DNA from: an uncultured Planctomycetia bacterium | GTDB lineage: Bacteria > Omnitrophota > Gorgyraeia > Tantalellales > Tantalellaceae | DNA: 64,000 nt | Assembly: GCA_964527765.1 (NCBI GenBank) | Contig: CAZGQR010000008.1 | Span: 14,264 to 78,263, forward strand | Direction of reading: 5' to 3' | Shown here: in pieces, positions 4,723-27,403 of the stretch | How positions within the stretch are numbered: the first letter of the stretch is position 1 | How the letters are laid out: every line of letters starts with the position of its first letter | The notes under the pieces: model-generated | The model's database searches: none | The model's input: only the letters and a program-made list of their open reading frames with translations | Told to the model about the DNA's origin: nothing | Made by a program: the position numbers and the translations under genes

Positions 4723-4736
4723 TCATGTCCTCCGGT

Positions 4737-4961: not shown

Positions 4962-5011
4962 ATTCCTGCTCTCCTTTGATCTATCCTGAAAAAACGGCGT
5001 TTCCGCCGCGA

Positions 5012-7225: not shown

Positions 7226-7702
7226 TCACAACTTTTCTTTCAGTTTCTTTTCGGCATTTTTCGGGACAAAACTTGAGACATCCGCCCCCAAGCGAGCGAC
7301 TTCCTTTATCAATTTACTCGACAGGTACGAGTATGATTCGTTCGGCATCATGAACACCGTCTCGATCTCCGGGTTCAATTTCCTGTTAGTGAGAGCCATC
7401 TGGAATTCATACTCAAAATCCGATATCATCCTGAGGCCCCTGACGACTATCCTGGCGCCTTTCGCGACGGCATAGTCCACCACCAGGCCGTCAAAATCCT
7501 CTACTTCGACATTATCATATTCCGCGACTGCTTCAGCCAGCATCTCCGTGCGTTCCTCGACCGAAAAAAAAGTGGATTTCTCCGGGCTATGCGCCACCGC
7601 GACAAAGACCTTGTCATAGATGACAGAAGCTCTTTTTATCACGTCGAGATGGCCATATGTGACGGGATCGAACGTCCCGGGATAAACGGCTGTTCTGGTC
7701 AT
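7226..7702 (-). CDS. coaD: Phosphopantetheine adenylyltransferase
   Basis: It contains AVYPGTFDPVTYGHLD, the (H/T)xGH nucleotidyltransferase motif. It is 158 aa. Confidence 0.92.
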   Translation of the reverse strand: MTRTAVYPGTFDPVTYGHLDVIKRASVIYDKVFVAVAHSPEKSTFFSVEERTEMLAEAVAEYDNVEVEDFDGLVVDYAVAKGARIVVRGLRMISDFEYEFQMALTNRKLNPEIETVFMMPNESYSYLSSKLIKEVARLGADVSSFVPKNAEKKLKEKL

Positions 7703-8253
7703 TTTTTAAGGAAAACGGATATAGTGGTATCTCCGTAAGTCTTTTGTTTAAAAATAGAAACATCCCTTTCTATTCCGGGGATATTCTCGTCCTTATGGTG
7801 CTCGATGATCAAGAGTCCAGCGGGCTTTAATATATCATAATGACTTACCATAATCAAGGTTTTTTTGCCCATACCCCTGTTATATGGAGGGTCAGAAAAG
7901 ACCAGATCGAACCTTTCCCTGTTCCTTCCGAAGAGTTCCAGCGACCTGAACGCGTCTTCTGTCGTCACTCTCGCGCGGCCCCCTACACCGAGCAGCCGGA
8001 TATTTTCCGTTATGATCCTCCCGCATTCCTCCTTTTCCTCCACGAATGCGCATCTTTGGGCCCCGCGGGACAGCGCCTCCAGGCCGTAGGCTCCGCTCCC
8101 GGCAAATATATCCAGGACATCCGAACCCGGCACTTTTTCCGCGATAATATTAAAGACGGCCTCGCGTATCCGGTCTTTCGTCGGCCTGACCGCTTCGGAG
8201 GCGGGCTGCTTTATCTTCCGCCCCCTGAACTCACCGCCTATTATCCTCATCAT
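7699..8253 (-). CDS. rsmD: 16S rRNA (guanine966-N2)-methyltransferase RsmD
   Basis: It contains RIIGGEFRGRKI, DIFAGSGAYGLEALSRGA and DPPY. The start was chosen at MMRIIGG (8253). The track ORF extends to 8310. Confidence 0.85.
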   Translation of the reverse strand: MMRIIGGEFRGRKIKQPASEAVRPTKDRIREAVFNIIAEKVPGSDVLDIFAGSGAYGLEALSRGAQRCAFVEEKEECGRIITENIRLLGVGGRARVTTEDAFRSLELFGRNRERFDLVFSDPPYNRGMGKKTLIMVSHYDILKPAGLLIIEHHKDENIPGIERDVSIFKQKTYGDTTISVFLKK

Positions 8254-8254
8254 G

Positions 8255-10345: not shown

Positions 10346-10415
10346 AATATCCCCTATTATGATATTATCTCGTACTGTTTTACCCCACCAGAGATTATAA
10401 GAGAAAGGTTCCAAG

Positions 10416-10646
10416 ATGGCAAGAGAATGTTATATATGCGGGAAAAAACCGGCCAGCGGCAGATCGATAAGCCGCAGAGGTATGGCGAAAAGTAAAGGGG
10501 GCGTCGGCCAGAGGATCACCGGGAAGACCCTCCGCCGGTTCACTCCCAATATCCAGACCGTTAGCGTATTGATCGGTGGAAAGAAAAAAAAGATAAAGGT
10601 CTGCGCTAAATGCATCAAGGCCGGCAAGGTCAAAAAAGTGCTCTGA
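10416..10646 (+). CDS. rpmB: 50S ribosomal protein L28
   Basis: It begins MARECYICGKKP, has the L28 fold, and is 76 aa. It is the only plus-strand gene in the window. Confidence 0.85.
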   Translation: MARECYICGKKPASGRSISRRGMAKSKGGVGQRITGKTLRRFTPNIQTVSVLIGGKKKKIKVCAKCIKAGKVKKVL

Positions 10647-10649
10647 AGA

Positions 10650-12359
10650 TCAGATGACAACCTGAAGATCCTTGATATTGAGCTGGATTGAATCGACCCC
10701 CGCCCAGCTGTTGATCGAGGGAGTATAAGCAAGGTTTATAATATCCCCCGACCTGGGCTTTTCAATATCCTTCTTTCTGAACGTTACCGCCTCGCAGGTA
10801 AGGTTCCCGCAGGTCGCCAGGAACTTAAAACCGTTCTTACCTATATCGCGCGGTGAATTCTTCACCTTTATGCCGCCCGTGCAAAAAATCGGTTCGCTGT
10901 TATCGGGACCGTGCGGCATAAGCATCTTGAGCTCATCGATAAGCTTCACGCCTATGTGCGAGAACGGCAGGCGAAGGTCTATCTTGAGTTCCGGGACCAC
11001 GGCCTCGCTTTGCACGGAATACTTTGCAGCCGCCTTATTCAGATCCTTCCTGAACGGCTCGATGTTTTGCTTTGCTATTTTTATACCGCACGCCTGTTCA
11101 TGCCCGCCGAAATCCACCAGATGGGCCCTGGCCTCGCTGATAGCGCCAAAAAGGTTGAATCCTTCCACGCTCCTGCCGGAACCTTTTCCCCTGTCGCCTT
11201 CGGTGGCTATCAGGATCACGGGCTTGCAGTACTCCTCCGTCAGCCGGGAGGCGACTATTCCGATAACGCCCGGATGCCAGTTTTCATCCGCCAAAACGAT
11301 GACCTTCTCCTTCTCCGGGTCCATCTCCTCTTTTACCCGCTGGAAAGCCTGTTTCAATATGTTTTTCTCGATATTCTGACGGTTCCTGTTTTCGCTGTCA
11401 AGAAGACGGGCGATCTCGCGGGCCCTGACGCTATCCCCGCACCTCAAAAGATCAAGGGCCACATTAGCGGATCCGACACGGCCCATCGCGTTTATCCGCG
11501 GCGCGAGGGCAAAACCTATATGCCTGCAAGTCAGCTTCTCGGGATTTACCCTTGCCACGTCCATAAGAGCTCTCAATCCGACCTTGTCGGTCTTCCTGAG
11601 TTCCTTTAGCCCGTTCTTTGCCAGTATCCGGTTCTCTCCCTTAAGCGGAACGATATCCGCTATGGTGCCGAGAGCCACAAGATCGAGATGCCTGTCCGCG
11701 AGCTCTTCCCGCCCTTTCATGAGAGCCCGGGCCAGTTTATACGCCACGCCGACACCCGCCAGGTAGTTGAAAGGATAAGAACAATCCGGCTGATGCGGGT
11801 CGATTATGGCGTACGCCGGCGGATGACTGCCCCCTTTTACGACATGATGGTCCGTAACGATCACGTCTATACCGTAATTATTCGCGCATTTTATTTCCTC
11901 CATGGAATTGATACCGCAATCCACGGTAACGATCAGCTTGACCCCGCGGTCCCTGGCCAGCGCCACGGCCCTTATATTAAGCCCGTACCCTTCTTCCAGC
12001 CGGTTCGGTATGAACGTGTCGTATTCCGCGCCTAAATGATCGAATATATCGGCGAGAAGCGCCGTGGAGGTCACCCCGTCCACATCATAATCGCCGTAGA
12101 TCAATATTTTTTCTTTATTGTCTATCGCTTTCTTTATCCTTTCCACGCCCCTGGCCATGTCCTTCATGAGGAACGGGTCGCTGCAGGAGGAAAACTCGCC
12201 GAAAAGGAATTCCTGGGCCTGCTCGGGGGTCCTGATATTGCGGTTCAGCAAAAGCTGCGCGAAAAGGGGTGATATACCCAGAGCATCACTGAGCACTTTT
12301 TGCAGCCGCGGGTTGGCTTCGTATAATTTCCAGTTCATTCCCATGTCAGACTGATTCAA
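10650..12359 (-). CDS. recJ: Single-stranded-DNA-specific exonuclease RecJ
   Basis: It has a DHH domain (DHH at VTDHH), DHHA1 and a C-terminal OB-like region. It is 569 aa. Confidence 0.88.
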   Translation of the reverse strand: MNQSDMGMNWKLYEANPRLQKVLSDALGISPLFAQLLLNRNIRTPEQAQEFLFGEFSSCSDPFLMKDMARGVERIKKAIDNKEKILIYGDYDVDGVTSTALLADIFDHLGAEYDTFIPNRLEEGYGLNIRAVALARDRGVKLIVTVDCGINSMEEIKCANNYGIDVIVTDHHVVKGGSHPPAYAIIDPHQPDCSYPFNYLAGVGVAYKLARALMKGREELADRHLDLVALGTIADIVPLKGENRILAKNGLKELRKTDKVGLRALMDVARVNPEKLTCRHIGFALAPRINAMGRVGSANVALDLLRCGDSVRAREIARLLDSENRNRQNIEKNILKQAFQRVKEEMDPEKEKVIVLADENWHPGVIGIVASRLTEEYCKPVILIATEGDRGKGSGRSVEGFNLFGAISEARAHLVDFGGHEQACGIKIAKQNIEPFRKDLNKAAAKYSVQSEAVVPELKIDLRLPFSHIGVKLIDELKMLMPHGPDNSEPIFCTGGIKVKNSPRDIGKNGFKFLATCGNLTCEAVTFRKKDIEKPRSGDIINLAYTPSINSWAGVDSIQLNIKDLQVVI

Positions 12360-13243
12360 TCAATATCCCCTGAAGGTTCGACGTGAACGATGACGTCTTT
12401 CACGTTCGGCATCGCCCTGAATATTTCTCTCCTGATCTTCATCGTCACCAGATGCCCTTCCTTAACGGTCTTGCTGCCGTCCACCCCTACGGTAACCTCA
12501 ACGAAAAACTCTATTCCGGTCTTCCTTGCCATTATTTTTTTCACCTCTTCGACCCCATCCACGCTGCTTATCGTATCTTTTATCCTGTTTCTCAATTCAC
12601 TGGGTGGAGCCGCGTCCATTAATTCATCGTAAGCCATGTGAAAAGTTTCAACGCCCATCTTGATTATGAAGCCGGCCACGATGATACCGGCAAGGGGATC
12701 CATGAATGTCCTGCCGAGCTTGGCCCCGGTGATACCTATGATCGCCGCGACCGATGACAGGACATCGCTTCTATGGTGCCGCGCGTCAGCTTTCAGCGAA
12801 GTGCTGTTTATCTTATTGCCCGCGGACATGACACGCCGATAAGTGATCTCTTTTACGATAATGGAAATAAGGGCCGCGATAAAAGCGATACTTCCGGGTT
12901 CGGTCATGTTCCCGGCTATCAGTATCCTCGCGGAATCATAAGCTATCCCCAGGCCGACCGCTATCAGGATAAGCGAGACGATCTTTGCCGCGATGGATTC
13001 TGCCCGGCCGTGCCCGAAAGGATGGTGTTCATCGGCGGGTTTTCGCGCGATCTTGAATCCGATAAAAACACCTATCGAGGTCAGGGCGTCGCTTGCCGTA
13101 TGGAACGCGTCGGCGATAATGGCCTGGGACCTGCCGAAAATGCCGGCGAAAAGTTTCATCACGAAAAGCAGGATATTACTGAGAATGCCCAGCCAGGCAC
13201 CTTTTTCGCCTATCTTGTAACCATATTCGTAACTGTGCGGCAT
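12356..13243 (-). CDS. Cation diffusion facilitator family transporter
   Basis: It has six TM segments, HxxxD motifs (ADAFHTASD, HHRSD) and a C-terminal cytoplasmic domain. Confidence 0.85.
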   Translation of the reverse strand: MPHSYEYGYKIGEKGAWLGILSNILLFVMKLFAGIFGRSQAIIADAFHTASDALTSIGVFIGFKIARKPADEHHPFGHGRAESIAAKIVSLILIAVGLGIAYDSARILIAGNMTEPGSIAFIAALISIIVKEITYRRVMSAGNKINSTSLKADARHHRSDVLSSVAAIIGITGAKLGRTFMDPLAGIIVAGFIIKMGVETFHMAYDELMDAAPPSELRNRIKDTISSVDGVEEVKKIMARKTGIEFFVEVTVGVDGSKTVKEGHLVTMKIRREIFRAMPNVKDVIVHVEPSGDID

Positions 13244-13283: not shown

Positions 13284-15512
13284 CTATCGCTTTGCTAGCT
13301 TTCTTCCCGGCCAGTCGATCAAGAGCGGGCTGGCAATGAATATGGAAGAATATGTGCCCACTATCACGCCGACGAGGAGCACAAAAGAAAAGTCGTTGAT
13401 CACCGTGCCCCCGAAGATGAACAGCGCAAGGACGACGACCAGGGTTGTCAGAGACGTCAATACCGTGCGTGAAAGCGTCTGATTTATACTGGTGTTTATT
13501 ATTTCTTCCTGTCCGGCTTTACGCATGAATTTCCTGTCCTCCCTTATGCGGTCAAAAAGCACTATCGTGTCGTTTATTGAATAACCGACGATGGTCAAAA
13601 GCGCTGCTATGACGGGCAGTGATATCTCGCGGCCCGTAAGCGCGATCATGCCGAGGGAGACCAGAACATCATGAATGAGCGCTATTATGGCGGTTACGGC
13701 GAACCTGAACTCGAACCGGAAAGAGATATACAGGCACATGCCTATCATGGCGAAGATCAGCGCCTTGATCGCCGCTCTTCTGAGATCCTCCCCGACCGCG
13801 GGACCGACTGTTTCCACCCTCATCACCTCAAAGGACTCCGGGCCGAACCTTTCGCGAAGACCGGAAATTATTTCCTCGGTCTTTCCGCTGAAAGACCTGA
13901 TTATGATCTCCTTGCCTTCCCCGAACTGCTGGATCGCGGATTCACCGAGCCCGGCACTGGAAAGAACGTTCCTTACCTCCGTAACAGGCACGACTTCGGT
14001 AAACTTGAACTGCTGCAGTGTCCCGCCGGTAAAATCCACACCGTAATTCTTCTCTCCGCGCTGCATGAAAAGGACCATTCCGCCCGCGATCACCAGGATC
14101 GAAAGCGCGTACGCTATCTTGCGTATTTTGACGAACGGGATGTTCGGCTGGCTGAAAAACTGCAGCATGGGAAGCTTCTGCATCTGAGGTTTATTTATGG
14201 TAATAACGTCGAATACGAGACGCGTTACCACCAGCGCGGTGAACATGCTGGCGATAATACCTATGCTGAGGACCGTGGCGAACCCCCTGACGGGGCCGGT
14301 ACCGAACTGAAAAAGTATGAGCGCGGTGATCAACGTCGTCACGTTGGCGTCCAGAATGGTCCAGAACGCCTTGTCATAACCGGCGTGAATGGCCGCCCTG
14401 AGGGACTTGCCGAGCCTGGACTCCTCGCGTATGCGTTCGAATATAAGCACGTTAGCGTCAACGGCCATGCCGATCGTAAGAACGAGACCGGCTATGCCCG
14501 GAAGAGTGAGCGTGGCGCCGAAATACGACAGCGCGCCGGTTATGATCAGTATGTTCAAAACAAGGGCAAAATCCGCTATCACGCCGGCGAGAAGATAATA
14601 TATCGCCATGAACGCAAGAACACATATCCCGCCGATGATGATGGCGTTGATGCCTCTCTCCACCGAATCCTTGCCGAGGCCCGGCCCCACGCTGCGTTCC
14701 TCTATGATCTCAACGGGAGCCGGCAATGCGCCGGCCCTCAATACCAGCGCGATATCCTTGGCTTCCTGAACCGAAAAATTGCCGGTTATCTGCGCTCTCC
14801 CGGAAGGTATCCTCTCGCGTATGACCGGGGCCGTATAGGGCTCTCCGTCAAGGACGACGGCCAGCCTGCGGCCGACGTTGGCGCCGGTCGTGTCGGCGAA
14901 GACAGCCCCGCCCTTATCGTTCAGCGTAAGAGAAACGTAAGGCTGGCCGAATCCCTGCTGGCTGAACTCGGTGGTAGCATCTACCAGCATATCTCCTGTC
15001 AGTACGACGTCCGTCTCGATAAGAAGCGTTTCCGTCTTGTCGTCCCTGGTCTTCATCTCCTCAAGTTCATACCCTTCGATCTTCTCTCCCGCCAGGGCCT
15101 TCTTGAGAAGCTCCGGATTGTCGCTCACGAGCCGGAATTCCAGATGAGCGGTCCGGCCTATGATCTCTTTGGCCCTTTCTCTGTCGGTAACGCCGGGGAG
15201 CTGGACAAGTATCCGGTCCTTGCCCTGAAGCTGTATGACGGGTTCAAGGACGCCGAACTGGTCTATTCTGTTCCGTATGATCTCAAGGGCGCGCGCGGGA
15301 GCATCTTTCGCTTCATTGGGAGACAATTTGGAAAGATCCACCCGAAGCACCAGGTGCATGCCGCCCTGCAGGTCAAGCCCGAGATTCAATTTCCCTTCCT
15401 GGGCGACATTTCCTTCCTTGTCGTAAATATCCAGCGGCGGATATGAAAACCATATCGCCAGGGCCGCGATCAGGACCACCAAGGCACTTTTCCACTTAAG
15501 TCTTTTCCACAT
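13284..15512 (-). CDS. secDF: Protein-export membrane protein SecDF (fused)
   Basis: It is 742 aa. The N-terminal SecD periplasmic domain and the C-terminal SecF TM bundle are in a single frame. Confidence 0.88.
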   Translation of the reverse strand: MWKRLKWKSALVVLIAALAIWFSYPPLDIYDKEGNVAQEGKLNLGLDLQGGMHLVLRVDLSKLSPNEAKDAPARALEIIRNRIDQFGVLEPVIQLQGKDRILVQLPGVTDRERAKEIIGRTAHLEFRLVSDNPELLKKALAGEKIEGYELEEMKTRDDKTETLLIETDVVLTGDMLVDATTEFSQQGFGQPYVSLTLNDKGGAVFADTTGANVGRRLAVVLDGEPYTAPVIRERIPSGRAQITGNFSVQEAKDIALVLRAGALPAPVEIIEERSVGPGLGKDSVERGINAIIIGGICVLAFMAIYYLLAGVIADFALVLNILIITGALSYFGATLTLPGIAGLVLTIGMAVDANVLIFERIREESRLGKSLRAAIHAGYDKAFWTILDANVTTLITALILFQFGTGPVRGFATVLSIGIIASMFTALVVTRLVFDVITINKPQMQKLPMLQFFSQPNIPFVKIRKIAYALSILVIAGGMVLFMQRGEKNYGVDFTGGTLQQFKFTEVVPVTEVRNVLSSAGLGESAIQQFGEGKEIIIRSFSGKTEEIISGLRERFGPESFEVMRVETVGPAVGEDLRRAAIKALIFAMIGMCLYISFRFEFRFAVTAIIALIHDVLVSLGMIALTGREISLPVIAALLTIVGYSINDTIVLFDRIREDRKFMRKAGQEEIINTSINQTLSRTVLTSLTTLVVVLALFIFGGTVINDFSFVLLVGVIVGTYSSIFIASPLLIDWPGRKLAKR

Positions 15513-17676: not shown

Positions 17677-18225
17677 TCAAGGTTTTTGAGGTTCCTTTAA
17701 AATGTTAAATCTTATTACCATCAAAGCTATTACACTGCCCGCGGCATTCAGGACGGCATCCCTCCAGTCAAAGACCCTGTTCGGCAGTAACAGCTGAATG
17801 ATCTCATCCAGAAAACCCGCACTCAGGCAGAACAGGGAACCGAAAAGATAGAGTTTTTTATCGAACCTGTCGATGTCTATTTTCAGCGCGTTATAAACAA
17901 AAACCCCCAGAAGCGCGTATTCGATCAGATGTATCTTCTCCACGGGGAATCTCGACAGTCTGTTCAGCGCCAGGAATATCCAGACGAACAGAAAGAATAA
18001 AAGGTAACTGTTCGGGGACCTTTCTTTTTTCACAAAGATCATATAAGCAAAGAGGCAGACAGCCGCGATGAAAAAGACGATGTACACCGGGATAGTGCCT
18101 TTACCGCCTAAAGATGCGTTAAACCCGTCCCAGATCCGCGGAGCGACCCCGAGAGTGGAATAAACAACCATCAGGTATAACGCGGTTATCGCCCACCAGA
18201 CTTTTCTCAGGTATTTCTTTCTCAT
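17677..18225 (-). CDS. VanZ-like family membrane protein
   Basis: It has 4-5 TM segments and contains EKIHLIEYALLGVF and GFLDEIIQLLLPNRVFDWRDAVLNAAG, matching the VanZ-family conserved core. The start was chosen at MRKKYL to avoid a long overlap with the upstream gene. Confidence 0.65.
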   Translation of the reverse strand: MRKKYLRKVWWAITALYLMVVYSTLGVAPRIWDGFNASLGGKGTIPVYIVFFIAAVCLFAYMIFVKKERSPNSYLLFFLFVWIFLALNRLSRFPVEKIHLIEYALLGVFVYNALKIDIDRFDKKLYLFGSLFCLSAGFLDEIIQLLLPNRVFDWRDAVLNAAGSVIALMVIRFNILKEPQKP

Positions 18226-18248
18226 AAGACCCTTCTTTAAACCGCGGT

Positions 18249-19430
18249 TTACTCCGCAGGCGCGGCCACTGCGGACCTTCTGCGGGTACATACGGTTTTG
18301 AGCGTTTTACCGAAAATTATAAGAAAATGCCTTATCAAATAGGGGTACACCATAAAACTCAACAGGACAAATTTCACCGTATCCCATATGCTGTCGAACA
18401 TGACCAGTTCGGCAATGTAACCCGTGCTTGTGCCGGCATTTCTTATCTTACGGAAGAACCAGCGGTCGCTTTTTTTTGCCGACCGCCCCAGGTCCTCGAA
18501 CACCGCCCCGGGCACAGGCGTGCCGAACATATTCTTCGTGAAAAGAAGCGCGTAATAAAGCGGTTTTCTTATCCTGTACTTCCCGGCGGCGCCTGTCACC
18601 TCTTCCCAGCTTATCTCCCCCTCATGCTTCCGGATAAACTCATTGATATCGACATACCATCTGACACCCGAGAAGCTGTGCTGCATGGATACGTGCAGGC
18701 ACTGATAAAGAAGCGTGTGGACGATATCCAGCGTGCGTAACCTCACACCGCCCGCGCTGAGCACTCTCGCACGCTCCAGGATCCCGTTCACATCCATATT
18801 GAGGATCCTGTTGTGCAGCATGCGCCCGATAAAACTCCTGTGAACATCCAGGCATATCCCGTCGTCCCGGACATACAGTTTCTGGGCCCTGTAATCATCG
18901 GGGTCCCCCTTGCCGTCAGAGGGCGTAAATCCCTGCGCCTTCAATATCCCGTGGACCTTCCGCGCGTCTTCCGGCCGCACCAGCAGGTCGATATCAGCCA
19001 TCTCCCTGAGGCCGATATCGCCGTACACATCCATCAGATAGGAAACCCCTTTCGTGAAGATCACGTCCACCCTTTCCTTCCGGAAAAGATCCGACAGCGA
19101 TCCGGCGGCATCGAGGTTCCTGACATTGTAAGCAAAGATCTCGGCGGTCCATTCCCTCAAACGGGCATTCACCCTTTCGGGGATACCGCCGAAACCCTGC
19201 AGGGACCTGTAAGCGAGCGGGGACACCTGATATACATTGGCGAGTTCCAGGAAGCGGTCCCAGTCCACTTTTCCCGAGCGAAGTATCGACCCCGCTTCCG
19301 ACCGCTCCTTTTCGCCTAGAGACGTCCTGGAAAAGAGGATGACGAGCTTTTCCTCGACAGCCCTCGGTCCGGAAGGGCCGAGATCAATGGCCGGAAAAAT
19401 ATCTATCTGCTGCGTGATCATTCTGGGCAT
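18249..19430 (-). CDS. Uncharacterised nucleotidyltransferase family protein (NTP_transf_5 / PF14907-like)
   Basis: It contains ADIDLLV and a surrounding GS...D.D-type Pol-beta-like nucleotidyltransferase core. It is about 390 aa with an alpha-helical C-terminus. This architecture is typical of the family that recurs in RiPP neighbourhoods. Confidence 0.65.
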   Translation of the reverse strand: MPRMITQQIDIFPAIDLGPSGPRAVEEKLVILFSRTSLGEKERSEAGSILRSGKVDWDRFLELANVYQVSPLAYRSLQGFGGIPERVNARLREWTAEIFAYNVRNLDAAGSLSDLFRKERVDVIFTKGVSYLMDVYGDIGLREMADIDLLVRPEDARKVHGILKAQGFTPSDGKGDPDDYRAQKLYVRDDGICLDVHRSFIGRMLHNRILNMDVNGILERARVLSAGGVRLRTLDIVHTLLYQCLHVSMQHSFSGVRWYVDINEFIRKHEGEISWEEVTGAAGKYRIRKPLYYALLFTKNMFGTPVPGAVFEDLGRSAKKSDRWFFRKIRNAGTSTGYIAELVMFDSIWDTVKFVLLSFMVYPYLIRHFLIIFGKTLKTVCTRRRSAVAAPAE

Positions 19431-20138
19431 TTAAAAAAGGTCTATAAAGCTGCTGCCGGTCACGTGGATATCGGACCCGGGACCGTACCGCCTTTCCGCT
19501 GTTTCGATGATCCTCTCAAGAAACCTGCCGGCAAACTCAGCGTTCCTGTCCCTGTGCCTGACATGTATATCGACGATAACACCGTGTTCCTTTTCCATCC
19601 TAACCGCGGCATTCGCGCTCCTGGATCCTCCCACAAAAGCATAGACCTTAAATCCGCCCCTGCTCTTGTGGACGGTGAAAAACATGCCTCTATAAAAAAG
19701 CTTTCTGGTGTTCCTATAAAGCGCGCCTTTGGAAAAAACCAAAAGGACCGGATCGAGGAATCTCCTCTTAATAAGAAGAGGTGTCAGGTTATGGCGTGAA
19801 AGAACGGCGATGACCCTGCCTGCCCGGCGCCGGAGGAAGGAATCCAGGGCAAAGACCCTGTCGCCTCTTTTTACGGTTACCACTTTCCCTCTGACCCCTG
19901 AAAAAGGGACCATCTCGCCTGAACCGGCAAGGGTATTATCGCCCTTGGTAACCAAATATTCCTCTTTCTTATTGACACTGAGAACACGATGGATAGCGGT
20001 CGTCCCGTTCCCGGAGATACTGTAAGTTATTATATCGCCTGACCCGATCAAACAGGGGTCGAATTCCTGACATATACATTCGTCCAGGGTTTTGATAAAA
20101 GGATACATGCTCTGGCCGTGAACAATGATCTTGCTCAT
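19431..20138 (-). CDS. Signal peptidase I-like (S26/S24 Ser-Lys) domain fused to a C-terminal domain of unknown function, possibly GNAT-like
   Basis: The N-terminus contains IVHGQSMYPF (Ser nucleophile box) and YLVTKGDNTLAGSGE (Lys / box-E-like). The C-terminal ~110 aa have no clear motif. It lies immediately downstream of the candidate precursor gene. Confidence 0.6.
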   Translation of the reverse strand: MSKIIVHGQSMYPFIKTLDECICQEFDPCLIGSGDIITYSISGNGTTAIHRVLSVNKKEEYLVTKGDNTLAGSGEMVPFSGVRGKVVTVKRGDRVFALDSFLRRRAGRVIAVLSRHNLTPLLIKRRFLDPVLLVFSKGALYRNTRKLFYRGMFFTVHKSRGGFKVYAFVGGSRSANAAVRMEKEHGVIVDIHVRHRDRNAEFAGRFLERIIETAERRYGPGSDIHVTGSSFIDLF

Positions 20139-20154: not shown

Positions 20155-20454
20155 TTAAATGACGCCTAACCCGCTCTTGCACGTGTTAAAAGCGGCGTTG
20201 CCGTCTTTACAGGAAATAGTAGCCATCATGCCGTCCTTGCAGTGTTTCGGGGTCGGAGAATACTGGGATCCGGTAGAGCACCCCAGCGTGGCCGTACCCC
20301 CGTCCCTACATTGCCCGCCGGCCACCGCGCCGAAATCACAGAGCTGGCCCGCGCTGTGCCCGCTTTTGCAGTTGAACGCCTGGGCCCCCTTGATCGTCGC
20401 GCTGCTCAGATCGTGTGCGAGGGGCGGTGTGTATTTCTTCTTTTTCCTTTTCAT
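20155..20454 (-). CDS. Candidate RiPP/cofactor precursor peptide: 99 aa, Gly-rich, 7 Cys, seven C-x-x-G repeats
   Basis: It has a strong GAGGTGA Shine-Dalgarno sequence 6 nt upstream of the ATG. The sequence is MKRKKKKYTPPLAHDLSSATIKGAQAFN-CKSG-...-CDFG-...-CRDG-...-CSTG-...-CKDG-...-CKDG-...-CKSG-LGVI. It has no hydrophobic signal peptide. It is flanked by PqqD, peptidase, rSAM/SPASM and ABC exporter genes. Confidence 0.6.
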   Translation of the reverse strand: MKRKKKKYTPPLAHDLSSATIKGAQAFNCKSGHSAGQLCDFGAVAGGQCRDGGTATLGCSTGSQYSPTPKHCKDGMMATISCKDGNAAFNTCKSGLGVI

Positions 20455-20465
20455 GCATCACCTCT

Positions 20466-20738
20466 TCAGGTTTTATATCCGATAAATCCGGTCTTTTTCA
20501 TGTCTTTGATAAAAGCACTATAGTCCCCGGCGGCTTTATCGAGAGTGACATCATAGGCCTCTGTCATCTTTTCGACAATGCCGGGGGCCGCATTACCGCC
20601 GTCGCACAGGTCCCAGACGAACATGCCTGTCTCATTTATGCACAGCATATGCCCGTCCGAGGGATTGAAAAGAAGCGCTTCTTTCTGTTCTTTCCGCGCT
20701 ACAATATCAGGATTTCTCACGGGATATTTCTTTTTCAT
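20466..20738 (-). CDS. PqqD-family peptide chaperone (stand-alone RiPP recognition element)
   Basis: It reads MKKKYPVRNPDIVARKEQKEALLFNPSDGHMLCINETGMFVWDLCDGGN...IVEKMTEAYDV...FIKDMKKTGFI. It has a PqqD-like length and motif order. The start was chosen at MKKKY; the track ORF starts at 20810. Confidence 0.7.
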   Translation of the reverse strand: MKKKYPVRNPDIVARKEQKEALLFNPSDGHMLCINETGMFVWDLCDGGNAAPGIVEKMTEAYDVTLDKAAGDYSAFIKDMKKTGFIGYKT

Positions 20739-22452
20739 GGCCGGTCCTCTCTTTTTCAAGTTCGAACACCTTATCAGTGAACCACTCCGCGGTATCTCTA
20801 TGGGTAACAAAAAGAACGGTCATCTCCGGGAAACACGTCCTTATGCCTCTTAGGATATCGTCCTCCATCCCGGGGTCCAGAAAGGAGGTCGCCTCGTCCA
20901 TTATGAGTATCTTTGGTCTTCTCACCAGCGCTCTTGCGATCGCGACACGCTGCTTCTGCCCTCCCGAGAGAGACGACCCCAGCTCCCCTATGTCTGTATT
21001 ATAGCCGATGGACATCTCATCGGCAAGTTCGTCAAGCTTTGCCAGGCGCATGATATCCCGGACAAAACCTTCGGGCTTCTTTTCCCCCAAAAGCACATTT
21101 CTGATAATAGTATCATTGAATATGTACGGTTCCTGATGAACACAGGAGATATGCCTGGAAAAAGAGCTCATATTCATATCACGTATATCTATTCCCCCGA
21201 TCGAGATCCCCCCGCTCCAGGGTTTAAAAAGCCTGAGCAACAGGCCCAGAAGCGTCGTTTTACCCGCGCCGGAAGGCCCGGTTATCAGAGTCCATTTTCC
21301 GGCCGGCGCCACCAGATCCAATCCCCGGAAAAGAGCTTTGTCCCTGCTGTAGCCGAATGTAATATCGCTGGCCTCTATGTCCCCGCTGAACAAGGATACA
21401 TCCGGTACCCGTAAAGCTGGCCGGATCCCCTGGGGCTGCGTGATATCCCTGATGAAAACGGCATTTCTCTCTATTGACCGCCTTTCTTCGCTCAGGTTCT
21501 GGGCTATAGCTCCCAGGTTGTAAAACTCCGACAATATCATGGCGGAATACATGCTTACCGCGCTGAAAGAGCCGAGACTCAGTTTTCCGGTTATGATAAA
21601 ATATCCCCCTAAAAGCCAAAAAACCGCGGTACTCGCCTTCGAGAGGATATCGAATGCGATCCGTTCGTTCTGCCTGAAGACAGAAGACTTTCGCTCCATC
21701 CGGACCTTCCGCCGGAAAAGCTTCATTATCCTGTCCACTGCCCAGTCTTCCTTGAAAAAGCTCTTCACCAGTTTGATGTTTATAAGAAGATCATTGAACA
21801 GCGCGCCGTACCTGCTCGAAAAAAAGATATAACCGCTCTTTAGCCGCTGACGGCCCCGTGCCGCCCAGACCGTATGGATCGCCACCAGCGGCAGCGATAA
21901 AAGCACGAGCAGGCTCAGCTGCCAGGAAAGCAGGAACGAGAGGATAAAAAATACGGGTATCTTGACAAAGGAAAAGAAAGCCGGCAGTTCATAGAACACC
22001 AGGTTTTCGATGACTCCGCAGTCGTAATTCGCGAAAAAAGCGTTCTCCGCGGAACTCAGCTTTTTTATTTTCAGGTAATCGAGCCCGAAAAGCCTCCTCG
22101 CAAGATCATAGTTAACTTCAATGGAAAACTCTGTCCTGGCGCCGAGCATCAACCTCTCCGCCGCTATCTGCAATGCCTTCATCAACAGGAACACCAGAAG
22201 CCCGAGCACGGTGAACTTCACAAAAGCGCTAAGATCCCCGGCCATTATACCCTTATCCAGCGTGATCTTGGTTATGTAGATGATCAGAAGCCCGAGCGGA
22301 AAACTCAAAAGCTTCAGGATAAAGGCACGGGTCAATGAATTTCGGAACTTTCTCAGGATACCGAAAGCATAGACCAGAATGGTCCTGATATCCCCGAGAA
22401 CGGAAGTACCTCTCCCCAGCAGCGGATCCAGACTAAGTTTCAGGTCAAACAT
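20707..22452 (-). CDS. ABC exporter, fused permease/ATPase (type I exporter; no N-terminal C39 peptidase domain)
   Basis: It has six N-terminal TM segments, then Walker A GPSGAGKTTL, the signature LSGGQKQR and Walker B ILIMDEATS. Confidence 0.85.
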   Translation of the reverse strand: MFDLKLSLDPLLGRGTSVLGDIRTILVYAFGILRKFRNSLTRAFILKLLSFPLGLLIIYITKITLDKGIMAGDLSAFVKFTVLGLLVFLLMKALQIAAERLMLGARTEFSIEVNYDLARRLFGLDYLKIKKLSSAENAFFANYDCGVIENLVFYELPAFFSFVKIPVFFILSFLLSWQLSLLVLLSLPLVAIHTVWAARGRQRLKSGYIFFSSRYGALFNDLLINIKLVKSFFKEDWAVDRIMKLFRRKVRMERKSSVFRQNERIAFDILSKASTAVFWLLGGYFIITGKLSLGSFSAVSMYSAMILSEFYNLGAIAQNLSEERRSIERNAVFIRDITQPQGIRPALRVPDVSLFSGDIEASDITFGYSRDKALFRGLDLVAPAGKWTLITGPSGAGKTTLLGLLLRLFKPWSGGISIGGIDIRDMNMSSFSRHISCVHQEPYIFNDTIIRNVLLGEKKPEGFVRDIMRLAKLDELADEMSIGYNTDIGELGSSLSGGQKQRVAIARALVRRPKILIMDEATSFLDPGMEDDILRGIRTCFPEMTVLFVTHRDTAEWFTDKVFELEKERTGHEKEISREKS

Positions 22453-23246
22453 GAAAAAACGCTTTCGTGTTTTTTAAAATCCAGCATTCGAAACCCGACA
22501 CGTTCAACGATGTCGTTCATTATATCAAAAACATTCCTCAAGTATTCTCCCCTGTCCACAGCTCCCACGTTTTCGCGGAAAAAAGAGGCCGATTCGGGCA
22601 GGGCCCTGCGCAGGGCCTCGATCCCGGAAACGGAGCTTACCCCGTTCTTATCGGACTTGTTGAGCAGAAAAACGCCGCCTATCTCCCATTCCTCGGGATG
22701 GCCCCACAGAGGTAGAAAACACGGAAAACGCGCCGCGAAAAACCTCTCGCCGGACCTTTTTACCACGCAGAAATCATCATGTATCACATGCAGGCCTTTT
22801 TTCCCGGCCAGGGAACATATCGTGCTTTTTCCGCCCCCGCTCGGAGCGATGAAAAGATGGGCTTTACCGTTCATCACCACGGAAGCCGAATGTATAAAAA
22901 CTATATCCAGGACGCTTTGAAGATCCATGACCGAAAGATTAAGAAGCCTGTCCACCAAAAAATCGACAGATAGTCCCCTTTCGAAAAAACAGAATATTCT
23001 CCTTCTTTCGGCGTCATAAAGCTGCGCGACCCTTTTCCCGTGAACCGTTTTAATGTCGGCTCTCAGGGAACTTTTTTGTATCCTGACCGATATATCCGTC
23101 CTCCCGCACCTGTACAGGAATATATCAAGATCCGCTTGTTCCGCCTCGGACGGACCGGCTGGCTTGAATATCACCGGCCTTTCCTGAAAATTAAGAAAAT
23201 TCAGCCGTATGTTCGTTCCCAGAGCTTTATAACAGATCTTTTCCAT
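22440..23246 (-). CDS. HPr kinase/phosphorylase C-terminal-domain-like P-loop kinase (HprK-related)
   Basis: It contains FIHSASVVMNGKAHLFIAPSGGGKSTICSLA (P-loop) and HDDFCVV. It is 268 aa and has no HprK N-terminal domain. This type tailors peptides in RiPP clusters. Confidence 0.65.
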   Translation of the reverse strand: MEKICYKALGTNIRLNFLNFQERPVIFKPAGPSEAEQADLDIFLYRCGRTDISVRIQKSSLRADIKTVHGKRVAQLYDAERRRIFCFFERGLSVDFLVDRLLNLSVMDLQSVLDIVFIHSASVVMNGKAHLFIAPSGGGKSTICSLAGKKGLHVIHDDFCVVKRSGERFFAARFPCFLPLWGHPEEWEIGGVFLLNKSDKNGVSSVSGIEALRRALPESASFFRENVGAVDRGEYLRNVFDIMNDIVERVGFRMLDFKKHESVFSCLT

Positions 23247-24369
23247 ATCCCGCTCTCAGGGCTTCAGGCACGAGCCTGGTCGAAGGGAAAAAACCGTTAT
23301 CATAGGCTTCCTGACAGAACCAGTATGGAGCGAAAAGGTTCCCGGTGTTATGGTAGACCTCGGCTCTGCAGCTCCCCAGACATCTGTTCCTGAAAACACA
23401 GATACCGCAAACGCCCTCCAGGTTGAACGGTATTTCCTTCTTTATCCTGTTAAGAAGGGCGTTCTCGCGCCATATATGCCCCAATTTGGAAGGGTCTTTC
23501 CTGACCGTTCCGAAAACCAGTTTTTCATCAATATGGCCTATTCCGCATATAGATACGCTCCCGTCGGGCAGGATGCCGAGTATGTTCTTGATATTGCACA
23601 CCCCGCAGATCCCCGTGCGCACTTCCTCGACGCTCTTAAAAGCCACCGGTATGTCCAGATACAACAATCCACGGTATGATCTCCTGATGCCTTCAAGCTT
23701 CTCGGCGAATTCCAGGAGCTCTCTGACGGAAGGCACTTCCCCTCTTTCATGCAGTTCGGCTCCCCTGCCCAGGGGTGATATCGTATTCAATTTGATATTG
23801 TTCACCCCCAGTTCCCACATCGACTCTATAAACCCGATAATATCGGCAAAATTCTCCCTGTACATGCTTATTATCACCTGCGGGAACACGCCTTCCGCGA
23901 CCAGCGCCCTGATCCCTGCCAATGCCCTTTTGAACGCCCCCTTCCTTCCTCTGAAATGGTCGTTCATTTCCTCCAGGTGGCTGTCAAGGCTTACGGATAT
24001 ATAAAACGCCTTGTATTTTTTTATGGCGGAGGCCATCTTGCCGTCAATGAGGGTACCGTTCGTTTCTATGCCCACTTTTATATCCTCATCATGGCAAAAC
24101 CGTAATAGTTCTCCGATATCTTTCCGCAGCAACGGTTCGCCTCCGGTAAACTTCACATCCTTAAGCCCCAGTTCTTTCGCCGCTTTAATAATGGCGACTA
24201 TCTCCCCTGTCGATAGCTCCTCGTCATCATCCAGGCTTTCTTTCAAGGGAGGGGATATCCAACAATGCCTGCACCTCAGGTTACAATACCTGGTGGGATT
24301 TATATATAAACTTGTGAGATCTTTCCCGGGTATCCCGCTATCCGTGTTCCTCTTGTCACATAACCCCAT
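23227..24369 (-). CDS. Radical SAM/SPASM-domain enzyme 1
   Basis: It has a CNLRCRHC (CxxxCxxC) site near the N-terminus. The C-terminus has Cys clusters CGVCNIKN...SICGIG and CGICVFRNRCLGSCRAEVY (SPASM). The start was chosen at MGLCDK (24369), directly after the upstream stop. The track ORF is extended 5-prime. Confidence 0.8.
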   Translation of the reverse strand: MGLCDKRNTDSGIPGKDLTSLYINPTRYCNLRCRHCWISPPLKESLDDDEELSTGEIVAIIKAAKELGLKDVKFTGGEPLLRKDIGELLRFCHDEDIKVGIETNGTLIDGKMASAIKKYKAFYISVSLDSHLEEMNDHFRGRKGAFKRALAGIRALVAEGVFPQVIISMYRENFADIIGFIESMWELGVNNIKLNTISPLGRGAELHERGEVPSVRELLEFAEKLEGIRRSYRGLLYLDIPVAFKSVEEVRTGICGVCNIKNILGILPDGSVSICGIGHIDEKLVFGTVRKDPSKLGHIWRENALLNRIKKEIPFNLEGVCGICVFRNRCLGSCRAEVYHNTGNLFAPYWFCQEAYDNGFFPSTRLVPEALRAGYGKDLL

Positions 24370-24374
24370 ATAGC

Positions 24375-25472
24375 TTACCTCTGTTTTGACAAAACAATAT
24401 CCTCTTGCACCCTGAAGCCGTACAGATCCGAGAAAACAAGACAGGTCGACATGTTGATACCTCTCAAGTTCTCTCCGGCCGAATAATAAGCCGCCGCCCG
24501 GCATCCTCCGTTGCAATACGTGAGATAATCGCACCTGCTGCATTCTTTCCCGTATTTGACGAGAGGCTCATCCGCAAGCGACCTTATCTCGTTAAGGACT
24601 CCGGAATTCTCCCAGATATCCCTGAGCGACTGCTTCCTTGTGTCGCCGCAGACCAGCGTCCAGAACGCCGAACACGGGACCACCTTTCCGTCGGAACGTA
24701 TGGCCAGCATGGTATGTCCCGCGGGACAGGTAGAAAACGTCCCCCTGGCCCCCTTATCGCGGCCTTTCGCATAAAAGTCGCAAAGCATGTTTGTTTTCTG
24801 GCCGAGCGTCCCGCCCAGGCTGAAACCGGGATATTTCTCTTTCAACCGGAACATGGTCTCCATTATCCGGCGGTGCATCCCGCCCTCAAAGGTCAGTTCA
24901 TTGGCATAAACGGAAGCTCTGCCGCATGTCACGGCATCGCCGAAATCCATGCCCGAAAGGCCGAGGTCCATGGCCAGACGGACCATGTTCTCGATATCGT
25001 CCAGATTGTGTCTGTTGACTATGGCCTTGATGGAAACCGGAAGCTTTTCTTTTATGAGAAGTCTGACGCCGTTCAACGCTTTCTCGAATGAACCTTCCCC
25101 CCGCTGCCAGTCGTGGGCGGAAGCGCTGGAACCGTCGATGCTCACCTGCGTCCCGGCCAGGAACCTCATGCCTCTCATCCACTCCACGGCTTCCTCTCCG
25201 ATAAGGGTACCGTTGGTAAGGATGGTGACCCTCATCGGATAATTGTTAAGTATGCCCAGAAGTTCACGGATCCTCGGATAAATGAACGGCTCTCCGCCGA
25301 AGAGGTTCAGGCTAAAAACCTTCTCTGCCTTAAGCTGGTCCAGCACCTTTATTAATTCATCAAAGGAAAGCTGGTCTTTAAGATGCCAGGTGTCGGAAGT
25401 ATTGCAGTGCTTGCACCTCAGATTGCACCTGCCGGTAATGGCCAGGTCCACTATGGTGGGAAAAGGTCTCAT
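24375..25472 (-). CDS. Radical SAM/SPASM-domain enzyme 2
   Basis: It contains ITGRCNLRCKHC at residues 13-23. The C-terminus has CPAGHT...VVPCSAF...CGDT...CSRCDYLTYCNGGCRAAAY (twitch/SPASM). It has no N-terminal RRE. Confidence 0.85.
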   Translation of the reverse strand: MRPFPTIVDLAITGRCNLRCKHCNTSDTWHLKDQLSFDELIKVLDQLKAEKVFSLNLFGGEPFIYPRIRELLGILNNYPMRVTILTNGTLIGEEAVEWMRGMRFLAGTQVSIDGSSASAHDWQRGEGSFEKALNGVRLLIKEKLPVSIKAIVNRHNLDDIENMVRLAMDLGLSGMDFGDAVTCGRASVYANELTFEGGMHRRIMETMFRLKEKYPGFSLGGTLGQKTNMLCDFYAKGRDKGARGTFSTCPAGHTMLAIRSDGKVVPCSAFWTLVCGDTRKQSLRDIWENSGVLNEIRSLADEPLVKYGKECSRCDYLTYCNGGCRAAAYYSAGENLRGINMSTCLVFSDLYGFRVQEDIVLSKQR

Positions 25473-25491
25473 TTCAGGTTTTTCAATGTGT

Positions 25492-26269
25492 TTAATATTT
25501 TTCTCCGAATACCGACGCGCAGTGCTTAAATATTATCAGGCCCTCGGAATTAAAAAGCCATATTATCCTGTAAAAATCCTCTTTGGACAACGCGGTTGCC
25601 AATTTCTTGTTCACATCCCGCCGGACGGCTTTCAGGTCTCTTGTGCCGTCAAAAAATTTTACAAGATCCATAAGGGCTTTATCATCAAGACCGGGATTCG
25701 CAAAATCACGGCGAGAGGTAACCAGGCCGCATTTGCTCGTAACGTCCTTTACGAAATGAAGTTCCCTTTTTTCCCTGGAATAAAAAAGCGTCTTCAACCT
25801 GGTAAGAGGATTTGAAACGAACTTCATATCCTCCTTAAGCATTTCCATGATATACTCGTCAAGGCCTTTTTTCCTTTCCTTTTCGGGCTTCCGGCCCCTG
25901 GGCAGGTAGGCAAAGGATATTTGCCAGCCGTCCCTGCAGTAAAATTTTCTGCACGCCCCCGGCCTGTCCGGATAGATCGAGCATCTGTTGTCCTTGCCCA
26001 GGTACACGCAGGACCTGTCAGGTCTCCTCTCAAGCCACCACTCCCTGTTAACGCAGCTGGAGTCCTTGTTTTCGCATTCCTTCCTGGTCAGCCTGCATAC
26101 CTCCCTGGCCTTGTATTTTCCGGACCGGAACTCCTTCTCGCTGAGATTTACGTCATACGTCCTGCAGCAGATCGCCTCGCACAGGTCGCGGACCTCATCG
26201 CAGTTCCCGTTGCCGAAGAAAAGCCTTTTGTTTTTCGCGTCCAGTTTTAATTTTTGAGATCTCTTCATG
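25492..26269 (-). CDS. YkgJ-family (UPF0153, CxxCxxCC-type) putative Fe-S/Zn-binding protein with a C-terminal PqqD-like tail
   Basis: It contains CDEVRDLCEAICC and CVYLGKDNRCSIYPDRPGACRKFYC, matching the YkgJ pattern. The C-terminal ~100 aa (LMDLVKFFDGTRDLKAVRRDV...YRIIWLFNSEGLI) resemble a PqqD/RRE fold. The start is MKRSQK, with a GGGGGC Shine-Dalgarno sequence. The track ORF is over-extended. Confidence 0.6.
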
Positions 26270-26341: not shown

Positions 26342-27403
26342 TCAAAGGTATGCCTTGACCGCGTCGATGACCCTTTCCTGTTCTTGCGCGCTGAGGGAAG
26401 GGTAGATAGGTATGGACAAACAGCCGGAATAGGCCTCGTCCGTGCTCCGGAAACCGGACCTGAGCTCCAGGTACCGGTGCAGCGGTTTATACACGGGCCT
26501 TTTGCAGATAATGCCCTTTTCACCCATCCGTGAGATCGCCGCCGATATATCCTTTTTTGTCCTTACTACGTACCGGTAATAAACATGGTCGAATTCGCCC
26601 TTCGGCAACACCAGGTCCAGGTCCTTGAAAGCTTTATCATAACGCACGGCTATTTCTTTTCTCCGTCGGATAAATCCGGGGAGTTTTTCAAGCTGCGCCA
26701 CTCCCATGGCGGCCTGCACGTCCGTCATCTTGTAATTGAAGCGGACCCTGTAGTCCTCTTTCTCGTCATAATCGCGGAGGTCCCGCGCGAGGCGAAGGAT
26801 CTCCTCGTCATCGGAAAGAAGCGCCCCGCCTTCGCCGCAGGCCAGCATCTTATTGGCGTAAAAGGAAAGGATGCCGAAACGCCCGATACTTCCCGCCCGC
26901 CTGTCCCCGTACATCGCCCCGATAGACTGGGCGCAATCCTCAACAACGGGAACACCCGCCTCCTTGATCCTCCCGATGTCAGCGGGATTTCCGAACATGT
27001 GCGGCACGATAACGGCACCGGCGGCATCCGTTATATTATCTTTAACGCTCTCCGGGGAAATATTAAAACTTTCCGGTTCTATATCGCAGAGGCGGGGCCC
27101 GGCACCTGTCTGATATACGGCATTCAACGGCGCGCTGCACACATAGGACGGAAGCAGCACATCATCACCCGGACCCACTCCCAGGGCCGCAAGGCCCAGA
27201 TGCAGGGCTGATGTGCCTGAACTGGTCACGACCGCCGCCCTGACGCCCGCGAACCGGGCCAGGCGCTCCTCAAGCTCCCTTACCCTGTCCCCCTGGGTAA
27301 TATGTCCTGACTTTATTACTTCCGAAACTGCCTTTAACTCTTCATCTCCCAGAGTAGGCCTCGAATGCGGAATGATCTTTTCGGCCATATATGATCCTTT
27401 CAT
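26342..27403 (-). CDS. DegT/DnrJ/EryC1/StrS-family PLP-dependent sugar aminotransferase
   Basis: It contains a TSSGTSALHL...ED.AQS...G region and the catalytic-Lys region SFYANKML. Confidence 0.85.
   Translation of the reverse strand: MKGSYMAEKIIPHSRPTLGDEELKAVSEVIKSGHITQGDRVRELEERLARFAGVRAAVVTSSGTSALHLGLAALGVGPGDDVLLPSYVCSAPLNAVYQTGAGPRLCDIEPESFNISPESVKDNITDAAGAVIVPHMFGNPADIGRIKEAGVPVVEDCAQSIGAMYGDRRAGSIGRFGILSFYANKMLACGEGGALLSDDEEILRLARDLRDYDEKEDYRVRFNYKMTDVQAAMGVAQLEKLPGFIRRRKEIAVRYDKAFKDLDLVLPKGEFDHVYYRYVVRTKKDISAAISRMGEKGIICKRPVYKPLHRYLELRSGFRSTDEAYSGCLSIPIYPSLSAQEQERVIDAVKAYL

Follow-up and report, generated by a model that had tools for sequence, protein, structure and literature searches.

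A putative SynChlorMet-like RiPP gene cluster in an Omnitrophota genome, including a YkgJ-type protein that probably carries a divergent PqqD-like tail

Here, we present an analysis of a 64-kb stretch of DNA from an Omnitrophota genome (GenBank assembly GCA_964527765.1, contig CAZGQR010000008.1), referred to as the window, meaning the whole stretch analysed, all genes of which lie on the minus strand. The region of interest features two tandem radical S-adenosylmethionine (radical-SAM) enzymes with SPASM domains (rSAM-1 and rSAM-2), a YkgJ-type Cys-cluster protein here named YkgJx, a discrete RiPP recognition element (RRE) of the PqqD family and a candidate cysteine-rich precursor peptide. In our reading, this is the maturase end of a SynChlorMet-like gene cluster for a ribosomally synthesised and post-translationally modified peptide (RiPP), and we give this reading, taken jointly with the pathway and the role of YkgJx proposed below, a probability of roughly 0.55. 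The observations on which we draw are the gene identities, their conservation and synteny, the presence and absence of the YkgJ gene among related clusters, the remote homology of its tail to PqqD and the topology predicted for that tail.

In the proposed pathway, a 99-amino-acid precursor would provide a lysine-rich leader with the pattern 'KKY.PP...DL' and a core of seven CxxG units repeated with a 10-residue period. The discrete 90-amino-acid PqqD would bind the leader and present the peptide to both radical-SAM/SPASM enzymes, which would most likely install cysteine-based cross-links. A ScmC/HprK-like protein, an NTP_transf_5 protein, an S26-like peptidase and an ABC exporter would tailor, cleave and export the product, with cleavage of the leader falling to the S26-like protein. 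The N-terminal domain of YkgJx may bind a metal or an Fe-S cluster, and its tail would either tether this Cys-cluster domain to the same leader or dock on a radical-SAM enzyme as PqqD docks on PqqE, an interaction studied by hydrogen–deuterium exchange mass spectrometry (PMC10906245). YkgJx would thereby add one further tailoring or electron-transfer step, and would not direct the second maturase. For its N-terminal domain, the options considered are metal-dependent tailoring of the core, an exchange of electrons with the SPASM enzymes, and chaperoning or protection of the cysteine-rich core.

The two maturases, the ScmE-like rSAM-1 (24375-25472, 365 amino acids) and the ScmF-like rSAM-2 (23227-24369, 380 amino acids), had been described in the original prediction as tandem SPASM radical-SAM enzymes without built-in RREs, and the description holds in both respects. 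Pfam matches lie above the cut-offs in both proteins, with Radical_SAM at 79.2 bits (E 5e-22), SPASM at 43.2 bits and an additional Fer4_12 match in rSAM-1, and Radical_SAM at 106.7 bits (E 2e-30) and SPASM at 22.5 bits (cut-off 21.5) in rSAM-2. The Cx2Cx5Cx3C SPASM arrays CSRCDYLTYCNGGC and CGICVFRNRCLGSC are readable towards the ends of the maturase translations, and the full seven-cysteine set is found in both. Among NCBIfam models the best match is ScmE for rSAM-1 (220.9 bits) and ScmF for rSAM-2 (317 bits), each against a cut-off of 400, and the closest solved chain to rSAM-1 is the thioether-forming SkfB (E 8e-21). Since the CxxxCxxC cluster occupies residues 15-22 in rSAM-1 (CNLRCKHC) and starts at residue 27 in rSAM-2 (CNLRCRHC), there is no space for an N-terminal RRE in either protein. 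The same follows from alignments to PDB chains, where residue 5 of rSAM-1 corresponds to residue 108 of SkfB, 101 of CteB and 134 of SuiB, all with an N-terminal RRE, but to residue 27 of PqqE, which lacks one. The absence of a built-in RRE, which had been put forward as a departure from most peptide-modifying SPASM enzymes, is nevertheless not unusual, as the PqqE, MftC and ScmE/ScmF families all use a separate PqqD-type partner.

A longer version of rSAM-2, starting at 24543 with the longest open reading frame, would have placed about 84 amino acids ahead of the cluster and thus offered space for an RRE. This start was rejected because the added codons lie over the 3' end of rSAM-1 and are read in a different frame from it, because homologues are 368-381 amino acids long and because the public gene call for the exact sequence is 380 amino acids, all consistent with the ATG at 24369. 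Public assemblies likewise call the exact 365-, 258-, 90- and 99-amino-acid products as genes, in addition to the 380-amino-acid one.

The discrete RRE is encoded at 20466-20738 by an open reading frame of 90 amino acids, and the claim that this is a PqqD gene passed the check by hidden Markov model (HMM): Pfam PF05402 is matched at 57 bits (cut-off 23.4, E 2.4e-15), with all 67 profile positions covered. The protein also reaches 45.9 bits on the NCBIfam model ScmD (cut-off 100), and the PqqD family profile matches solved leader-binding RREs, namely 9x90 (6e-5) and the lasso-peptide B1 RREs 9x8z (7e-7), TfuB1 6jx3 (2e-4) and TbiB1 5v1u (4e-4), so that, judged by its sequence, the product is a bona fide PqqD. 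The gene of the candidate precursor (20155-20454, 99 amino acids) begins 12 nucleotides downstream of the PqqD gene, and this pairing is kept in all sister loci, which are labelled L001 onwards. Its leader is rich in lysine, MKRKKKKYTPPLAHDL, and the cysteines of the seven CxxG units in the core are spaced by 10, 10, 10, 13, 10 and 10 residues. The precursor is conserved in 10 other distinct loci (L001, L002, L003, L016, L017, L018, L024, L027, L028 and L030), with homologues at 15854-16147 in L001, 12630-12875 in L002, 15805-16101 in L003, 10284-10586 in L016, 10287-10544 in L017 and 12797-13072 in L018. The precursors of this family share the leader pattern 'KY.PP(L/I/V)..DL' and have 5-10 CxxG units in the core, with a strict 10-11 residue period, and this design returns in every related locus examined. 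No significant match to the precursor was found among the Pfam or NCBIfam models, and from their sequences the CxxG-repeat peptides look like an unmodelled class of RiPP precursors. Lasso B1 RREs recognise a YxxPxL motif, of which the 'Y..P' of the precursor leader strikes us as reminiscent.

YkgJx is encoded at 25492-26268 (258 amino acids), and consists of a Cys-cluster domain (approximately residues 1-115, 25924-26268) and a C-terminal PqqD/RRE-like domain (approximately residues 147-250, 25519-25830). The gene itself had been correctly recognised, but its end had been set at 26269, which is 1 base out of frame and yields 14 stops, and is here corrected to 26268. Over its whole length, the open reading frame is retained in 8 close homologues and in 59 representative clusters from a library of 1.84 billion proteins, and these proteins are nearly all 240-280 amino acids long with the tail domain at the C-terminus. 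In the window protein, the N-terminal domain matches Pfam PF03692 (CxxCxxCC) at 20.6 bits over residues 25-109, which is under the gathering cut-off of 23, whereas PF03692 is matched at E <= 10 by 45 of the 45 family members (best E 2.9e-7) and is assigned among precomputed annotations to the homologues P0006 and P0008. The earlier assignment to the YkgJ family thus concerns a real and conserved protein, even if the window protein falls short of the family cut-off on its own. Across the 45 sequences, ten cysteines of this domain are invariant and one more is nearly so. The literal CxxCxxCC motif is not found in YkgJx, which instead reads C23-x6-C30-x3-C34-C35 (Cx6Cx3CC), and the second half typical of YkgJ, 'C.YL....C.IY..RP..C..F.C', is conserved. 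A weak NCBIfam match to the FliB N-terminal domain was also obtained (E 0.058). Sequence searches of the PDB with full-length YkgJx, the tail profile and the 45-member profile gave chance matches alone, and Foldseek with the full-length AlphaFold2 (AF2) model of YkgJx gave noise alone. In L001, L024, L027 and L028, YkgJx is 32-55% identical to the window protein, compared with 64-68% for rSAM-1. YkgJx thus diverges much faster than the neighbouring maturase and is apparently less tightly constrained than the core enzymes.

The tail of YkgJx is probably a very divergent homologue of PqqD and other RREs, judging from profile comparisons and a predicted structure. The AF2 model of the tail alone (predicted local distance difference test score, pLDDT, 84.8; predicted template modelling score 0.77) has four strands (residues 149-152, 156-164, 169-176 and 182-188) and then three helices (196-203, 212-222 and 229-241); a short strand separates the first two helices, a final strand (245-248) closes the domain, and a linker helix (126-143) precedes the whole. 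The check by structure prediction that had been proposed for the C-terminus therefore returned strands followed by three helices, and the predicted tail has the order of three beta-strands and then three alpha-helices by which RREs are defined (PMC12710340). Profile-profile comparison with hhalign points in the same direction. With 9 tail sequences the similarity was weak (E 0.013-0.029), and it improved after the family had been enlarged from the search of 1.84 billion proteins: 45 tail sequences gave E 8.5e-5 and a probability of 60% against the cluster's own PqqD family, E 4.4e-5 and 69% after four solved RRE sequences had been added, and E 6e-5 against a 120-sequence PqqD profile. With the wider profile the probability went no higher than about 65-69%, under the usual HH level of 90%, and we treat the similarity as moderate evidence.

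The register of the alignment was the same against three PqqD profiles and covers 48 columns, from the (F/C)DG motif that belongs to the end of helix 1, through helices 2 and 3, to the last strand, while a relaxed alignment extends to 87 columns, nearly the whole of PqqD, and also aligns an 'F..NP' motif at the start of both domains. The real score of 27.7 compares with 10.5 +/- 1.7 (maximum 14.1) in 60 column shuffles, a distance of approximately 10 standard deviations, and with 12.6 for the reversed alignment and 12.8 for the N-terminal domain as controls. An HMM of the tail detected 15 of 122 PqqD proteins at E < 0.01 (best 4.6e-4), compared with a best value of 0.6 in reversed or shuffled sets. 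The single weak Pfam matches seen among the relatives also point to winged-helix families, namely Cdc6_C, MarR_2 and PqqD. The original claim that a PqqD-like module forms the end of the YkgJ protein is hence supported by remote profile similarity and AF2 topology, but not by any Pfam PqqD match of the window protein or any significant Foldseek match.

Several results weigh against this assignment and against the role given to YkgJx. YkgJx itself has no Pfam PqqD (PF05402) match at E <= 10, and only one of the 45 relatives has one (E 0.075). Foldseek with the tail model against 350,542 PDB chains returned nothing below E 0.05 and no PqqD or B1 chain among the top 50 matches; the sole RiPP-related match was the dehydratase TbtB (6ec7; probability 0.84, TM 0.38). 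The HMMER search of the tail profile against 1.84 billion proteins yielded 59 clusters, apparently of its own family alone, and none that matched end to end in the manner of a discrete PqqD of about 90 amino acids. The AF2 model of the N-terminal domain, built from a 9-sequence alignment, is unreliable (pLDDT < 50), and we know of no established function for YkgJ-family domains apart from FliB. Finally, distant relatives of YkgJx with its tail occur in L012 and L015 away from any radical-SAM gene, and the relatives in L012, L014 and L015 (29-41% identity) lie outside recognisable RiPP clusters, although the one in L014 adjoins an NTP_transf_5 gene. The link of YkgJx to RiPP chemistry is accordingly frequent and not obligatory, and the distant relatives either act in trans or belong to a family with broader roles. 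A locus search with the 9-member YkgJx alignment returned already known loci and fragments alone.

These points bear on the strongest of the alternative explanations, in which the tail would be a winged-helix module of a general kind that contacts DNA or protein, and YkgJx a redox- or metal-sensing regulator or an Fe-S accessory protein that is merely adjacent to the cluster. Such a function would suit the surroundings of the distant relatives, found among response regulators and PilZ in L012, ribosomal and housekeeping genes in L015 and sugar genes in L014, and it would suit the Foldseek result without a PqqD match as well as the weak Pfam matches among the relatives to the winged helices Cdc6_C and MarR_2. 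Among the profiles compared, however, the sole specific and collinear similarity is to PqqD, with 'F..NP' and '(F/C)DG' in order, and the relative in L014 retains a component of the cluster, NTP_transf_5, as its neighbour. The tight coupling of YkgJx to rSAM-1 in seven distinct clusters, together with its occurrence in the distant L011, is also at odds with mere adjacency, and on balance we regard this explanation as unlikely.

The coupling is seen in the gene order YkgJx, rSAM-1, rSAM-2, ScmC, ABC exporter, PqqD, precursor, S26 and NTP_transf_5, which is shared by the window, L001, L002, L003, L024, L027 and L028, a set of Omnitrophota and related loci from metagenome-assembled genomes. In the window, the stop of YkgJx precedes the start of rSAM-1 by 19 nucleotides. 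The genes share 4 nucleotides in L003, and in L002, where 1 nucleotide lies between them, YkgJx still abuts rSAM-1 although two unrelated genes have come between it and the DegT gene. In L011, a locus of high GC content, a YkgJx of 33% identity is located between radical-SAM genes, beside a PqqD gene and a fusion of a radical-SAM enzyme with ScmC. By contrast, L016/L021/L023 and L017 have no YkgJx, but everything from the two radical-SAM enzymes through ScmC, the exporter, a single PqqD, the precursor and the peptidase to NTP_transf_5 is present in an unchanged order. The rSAM-1 of L016 is 66% identical to that of the window, which makes it as close as the rSAM-1 of several YkgJx-positive clusters. 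YkgJx is thus an accessory and optional component of the cluster.

The same sister clusters decide on the idea that the two PqqD-like modules are divided between the maturases, the free one for one enzyme and the YkgJ-fused one for the other, in two sequential and separately directed steps, as the original prediction had suggested. The window does contain two radical-SAM genes and two PqqD-like modules, with YkgJx directly upstream of rSAM-1. However, since the YkgJx-negative sisters keep both radical-SAM enzymes with a single PqqD, one free PqqD suffices for both maturases, and the numbers do not match in L011 either, where three radical-SAM enzymes accompany one PqqD and one YkgJx. Furthermore, the four matched SynChlorMet models comprise two radical-SAM enzymes, one PqqD-related protein and ScmC, with none for a second RRE, and fused RREs mostly serve the domain to which they are attached (PMC12710340). 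One RRE per maturase is therefore not supported and very unlikely. The RRE-like tail travels solely with its fused Cys-cluster domain, and most likely it serves that domain.

RRE copy number varies widely in this family of clusters. L031/L032 feature three PqqD-like genes (7430-12711) and L029 two, near one or two radical-SAM genes and an NTP_transf_5 gene, while the first PqqD gene of L018 (10001-10522, 173 amino acids) apparently consists of two tandem PqqD-like repeats. L018 also encodes a 268-amino-acid P-loop protein (14317-15123) with a GPQRSGT motif and a C-terminal PqqD domain recognised by Pfam; its P-loop domain looks sulfotransferase-like to us, and the protein is a precedent, from a related cluster, for a PqqD domain fused to an enzyme. 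In L011, the fusion of a radical-SAM maturase and a ScmC-like P-loop protein comprises 702 amino acids (3762-5870), two further radical-SAM genes are present in the cluster, and the candidate precursor (9325-9552) combines a 'W.AP.L' leader with a core of another kind, which contains four cysteines.

Least convincing is the notion that YkgJx belongs to an upstream sugar-modification operon (WbqC, PIG-L, DegT and glycosyltransferases), for although it lies between DegT and rSAM-1 on one strand and the relative in L014 adjoins epimerase and glycosyltransferase genes, the gap to DegT is 73 nucleotides against 19 to rSAM-1, the insertion in L002 separates YkgJx from DegT and leaves it abutting rSAM-1, L016 keeps WbqC, PIG-L and DegT without YkgJx, and in L011 YkgJx is found among radical-SAM genes on a 15.6-kb contig with no called gene that has a sugar-related Pfam match.

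For YkgJx as an optional partner of the maturases, the precursor itself may hold a weak hint at the target residue. Units in which lysine directly follows the repeat cysteine ('CK') number 4, 3, 3, 2, 1, 4 and 3 in the YkgJx-positive window, L001, L002, L003, L024, L027 and L028, compared with 0, 0 and 1 in the YkgJx-negative L016, L017 and L018, a tiny sample that is not phylogenetically independent. FliB, which has a YkgJ-type N-terminal domain, is named lysine methylase in NCBIfam, and is to our knowledge the only characterised protein with this type of domain and one that modifies lysine. That the YkgJ-RRE protein is a new leader-guided metallo-enzyme or Fe-S tailoring enzyme working on a CxxG-repeat peptide is a speculative proposal to which we attach little confidence, and action on the lysine after the cysteine is one possibility for such an enzyme. 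If the proposal is true, a peptide substrate would for the first time be defined for the very large YkgJ/UPF0153 family, and the RRE family would reach past present detection by Pfam and Foldseek.

The remaining genes of the cluster follow the maturases on the same strand. The ScmC-like, HprK-related P-loop protein (22440-23246, 268 amino acids) contains the P-loop 'APSGGGKST' and matches the NCBIfam models HprK_rel_A (E 5e-6) and ScmC (E 1.5e-4), both far under their cut-offs, and its orthologues in L001-L003 have the precomputed Pfam assignment PF27840 ScmC. The ABC exporter (20707-22452, 581 amino acids; permease and ATPase, Pfam ABC_membrane and ABC_tran) keeps its position in all sister clusters. 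Downstream of the precursor, the S26-type, signal-peptidase-I-like protein and candidate leader peptidase (19431-20138, 235 amino acids) matches the NCBIfam model sigpep_I_arch at 52.2 bits over residues 3-89 (cut-off 51.85), and is followed by the NTP_transf_5 nucleotidyltransferase-family protein (18249-19430, 393 amino acids; Pfam PF14907, E 2e-50); the positions of both are conserved among the sister loci. The roles proposed for the ScmC-like and NTP_transf_5 proteins are drawn by analogy from the kinase and nucleotidyltransferase pair that phosphorylates and glycosylates the lasso peptide pseudomycoidin (PMC9266682), where the HPr-kinase link of ScmC is the HprK_rel_A match. The S26-like protein features a 'GQSMYPF' motif and a C-terminal part of about 145 amino acids without assignment, and its equivalent in L011 has 370 amino acids. 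A VanZ-like protein is encoded at 17677-18291 (204 amino acids).

On the other side of the peptide cluster, genes for sugar modification and glycosyltransferases form a long run on the same strand (26342-60600, minus strand). The cluster adjoins the 3' end of this run, where the DegT-type aminotransferase (26342-27403, 353 amino acids) is its nearest neighbour. In view of the NTP_transf_5 and kinase-like genes, the peptide might conceivably be glycosylated. WbqC, PIG-L and DegT lie directly upstream of the cluster and are kept adjacent in most sister loci. L017 differs in that WbqC and PIG-L are located downstream, and no DegT was found there. The GC content of the window, about 0.51, drops to 0.40-0.45 in the part from 36 to 48 kb.

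Across RiPP classes, pathways are found chiefly through their RRE domains, and where an RRE is fused to another domain, that domain is flagged as a peptide-modifying enzyme. A YkgJ domain tied to an RRE-like tail beside a likely substrate would thus make a widespread and scarcely characterised Cys-cluster domain directly testable. Since neither PF05402 nor a Foldseek search of the PDB picks up the tail, related domains may be missed by current RRE detection. The cluster further offers a precursor type with CxxG units and a 10-residue period from a poorly explored phylum, the Omnitrophota. The core arrangement of two SPASM maturases and a free PqqD is in itself ordinary and known, and the mildly new part is the YkgJ-RRE fusion.

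Among known systems, the closest is the SynChlorMet (SCM) cassette, defined by the NCBIfam/TIGRFAMs models ScmC (TIGR04249), ScmD (TIGR04248), ScmE (TIGR04250) and ScmF (TIGR04251). As these models describe the same set, two PqqE-like SPASM enzymes with one PqqD are already catalogued. The window shares with the cassette the two tandem PqqE-like SPASM proteins, the discrete PqqD-related protein and the ScmC/HprK-like protein, and the Scm models are the best or near-best NCBIfam matches of the four core proteins. It differs in scores that lie under all curated cut-offs (ScmE 220.9 of 400, ScmF 317 of 400, ScmD 45.9 of 100 and ScmC 21.2 of 125), and in that this lineage adds the CxxG-repeat precursor, the S26-like peptidase, NTP_transf_5 and the ABC exporter and, in most clusters, the YkgJ-RRE protein. 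With the gene content of the four models, 'SCM-like' is an apt label, and the cluster falls outside the curated definition. Our literature search found no paper on SynChlorMet, with the names ScmC to ScmF matching unrelated papers alone, and the cassette appears to be experimentally uncharacterised.

The pairs PqqE/PqqD and MftC/MftB resemble the present system in that the maturases start near the CxxxCxxC cluster and depend on a separately encoded PqqD-family protein, but here two maturases accompany each PqqD, the precursor is a cysteine-repeat peptide and not PqqA or MftA, and the scores are well under the family cut-offs. With the thioether-forming maturases that have built-in RREs (SkfB, CteB, AlbA and the PapB family), the present enzymes share the seven-cysteine SPASM arrays and a cysteine-rich repetitive substrate as in the PapB/freyrasin type; they differ by the lack of an N-terminal RRE, and scores for the PapB, StsB, AlbA and SkfB models are far under the cut-offs.

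YkgJx joins the YkgJ/UPF0153/PF03692 proteins, including the N-terminal domain of the flagellin lysine-N-methylase FliB, through a cysteine-rich N-terminal domain that matches PF03692 in every one of the 45 members, and departs from them in its Cx6Cx3CC opening, in the sub-threshold score of the window protein and in an RRE-like tail that lies outside the family model. Our literature search on YkgJ with PqqD or radical SAM gave nothing, and general YkgJ papers held no functional information. RRE-Finder retrieves 1,158 Pfam domains, and fusions of RREs to many enzyme domains are documented (PMC12710340); PF03692/YkgJ is not named in the main text of PMC12710340 or PMC7470986, nor in one supplementary file. 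Compared with the RRE fusion proteins described there, the partner in YkgJx is a YkgJ/CxxCxxCC domain (PF03692), and its RRE-like part has diverged too far to be recognised by PF05402 or by Foldseek against the PDB. The likeness lies in the overall design, an enzyme-like domain joined to a PqqD-like one and encoded beside a precursor and radical-SAM maturases (PMC12710340, PMC7470986).

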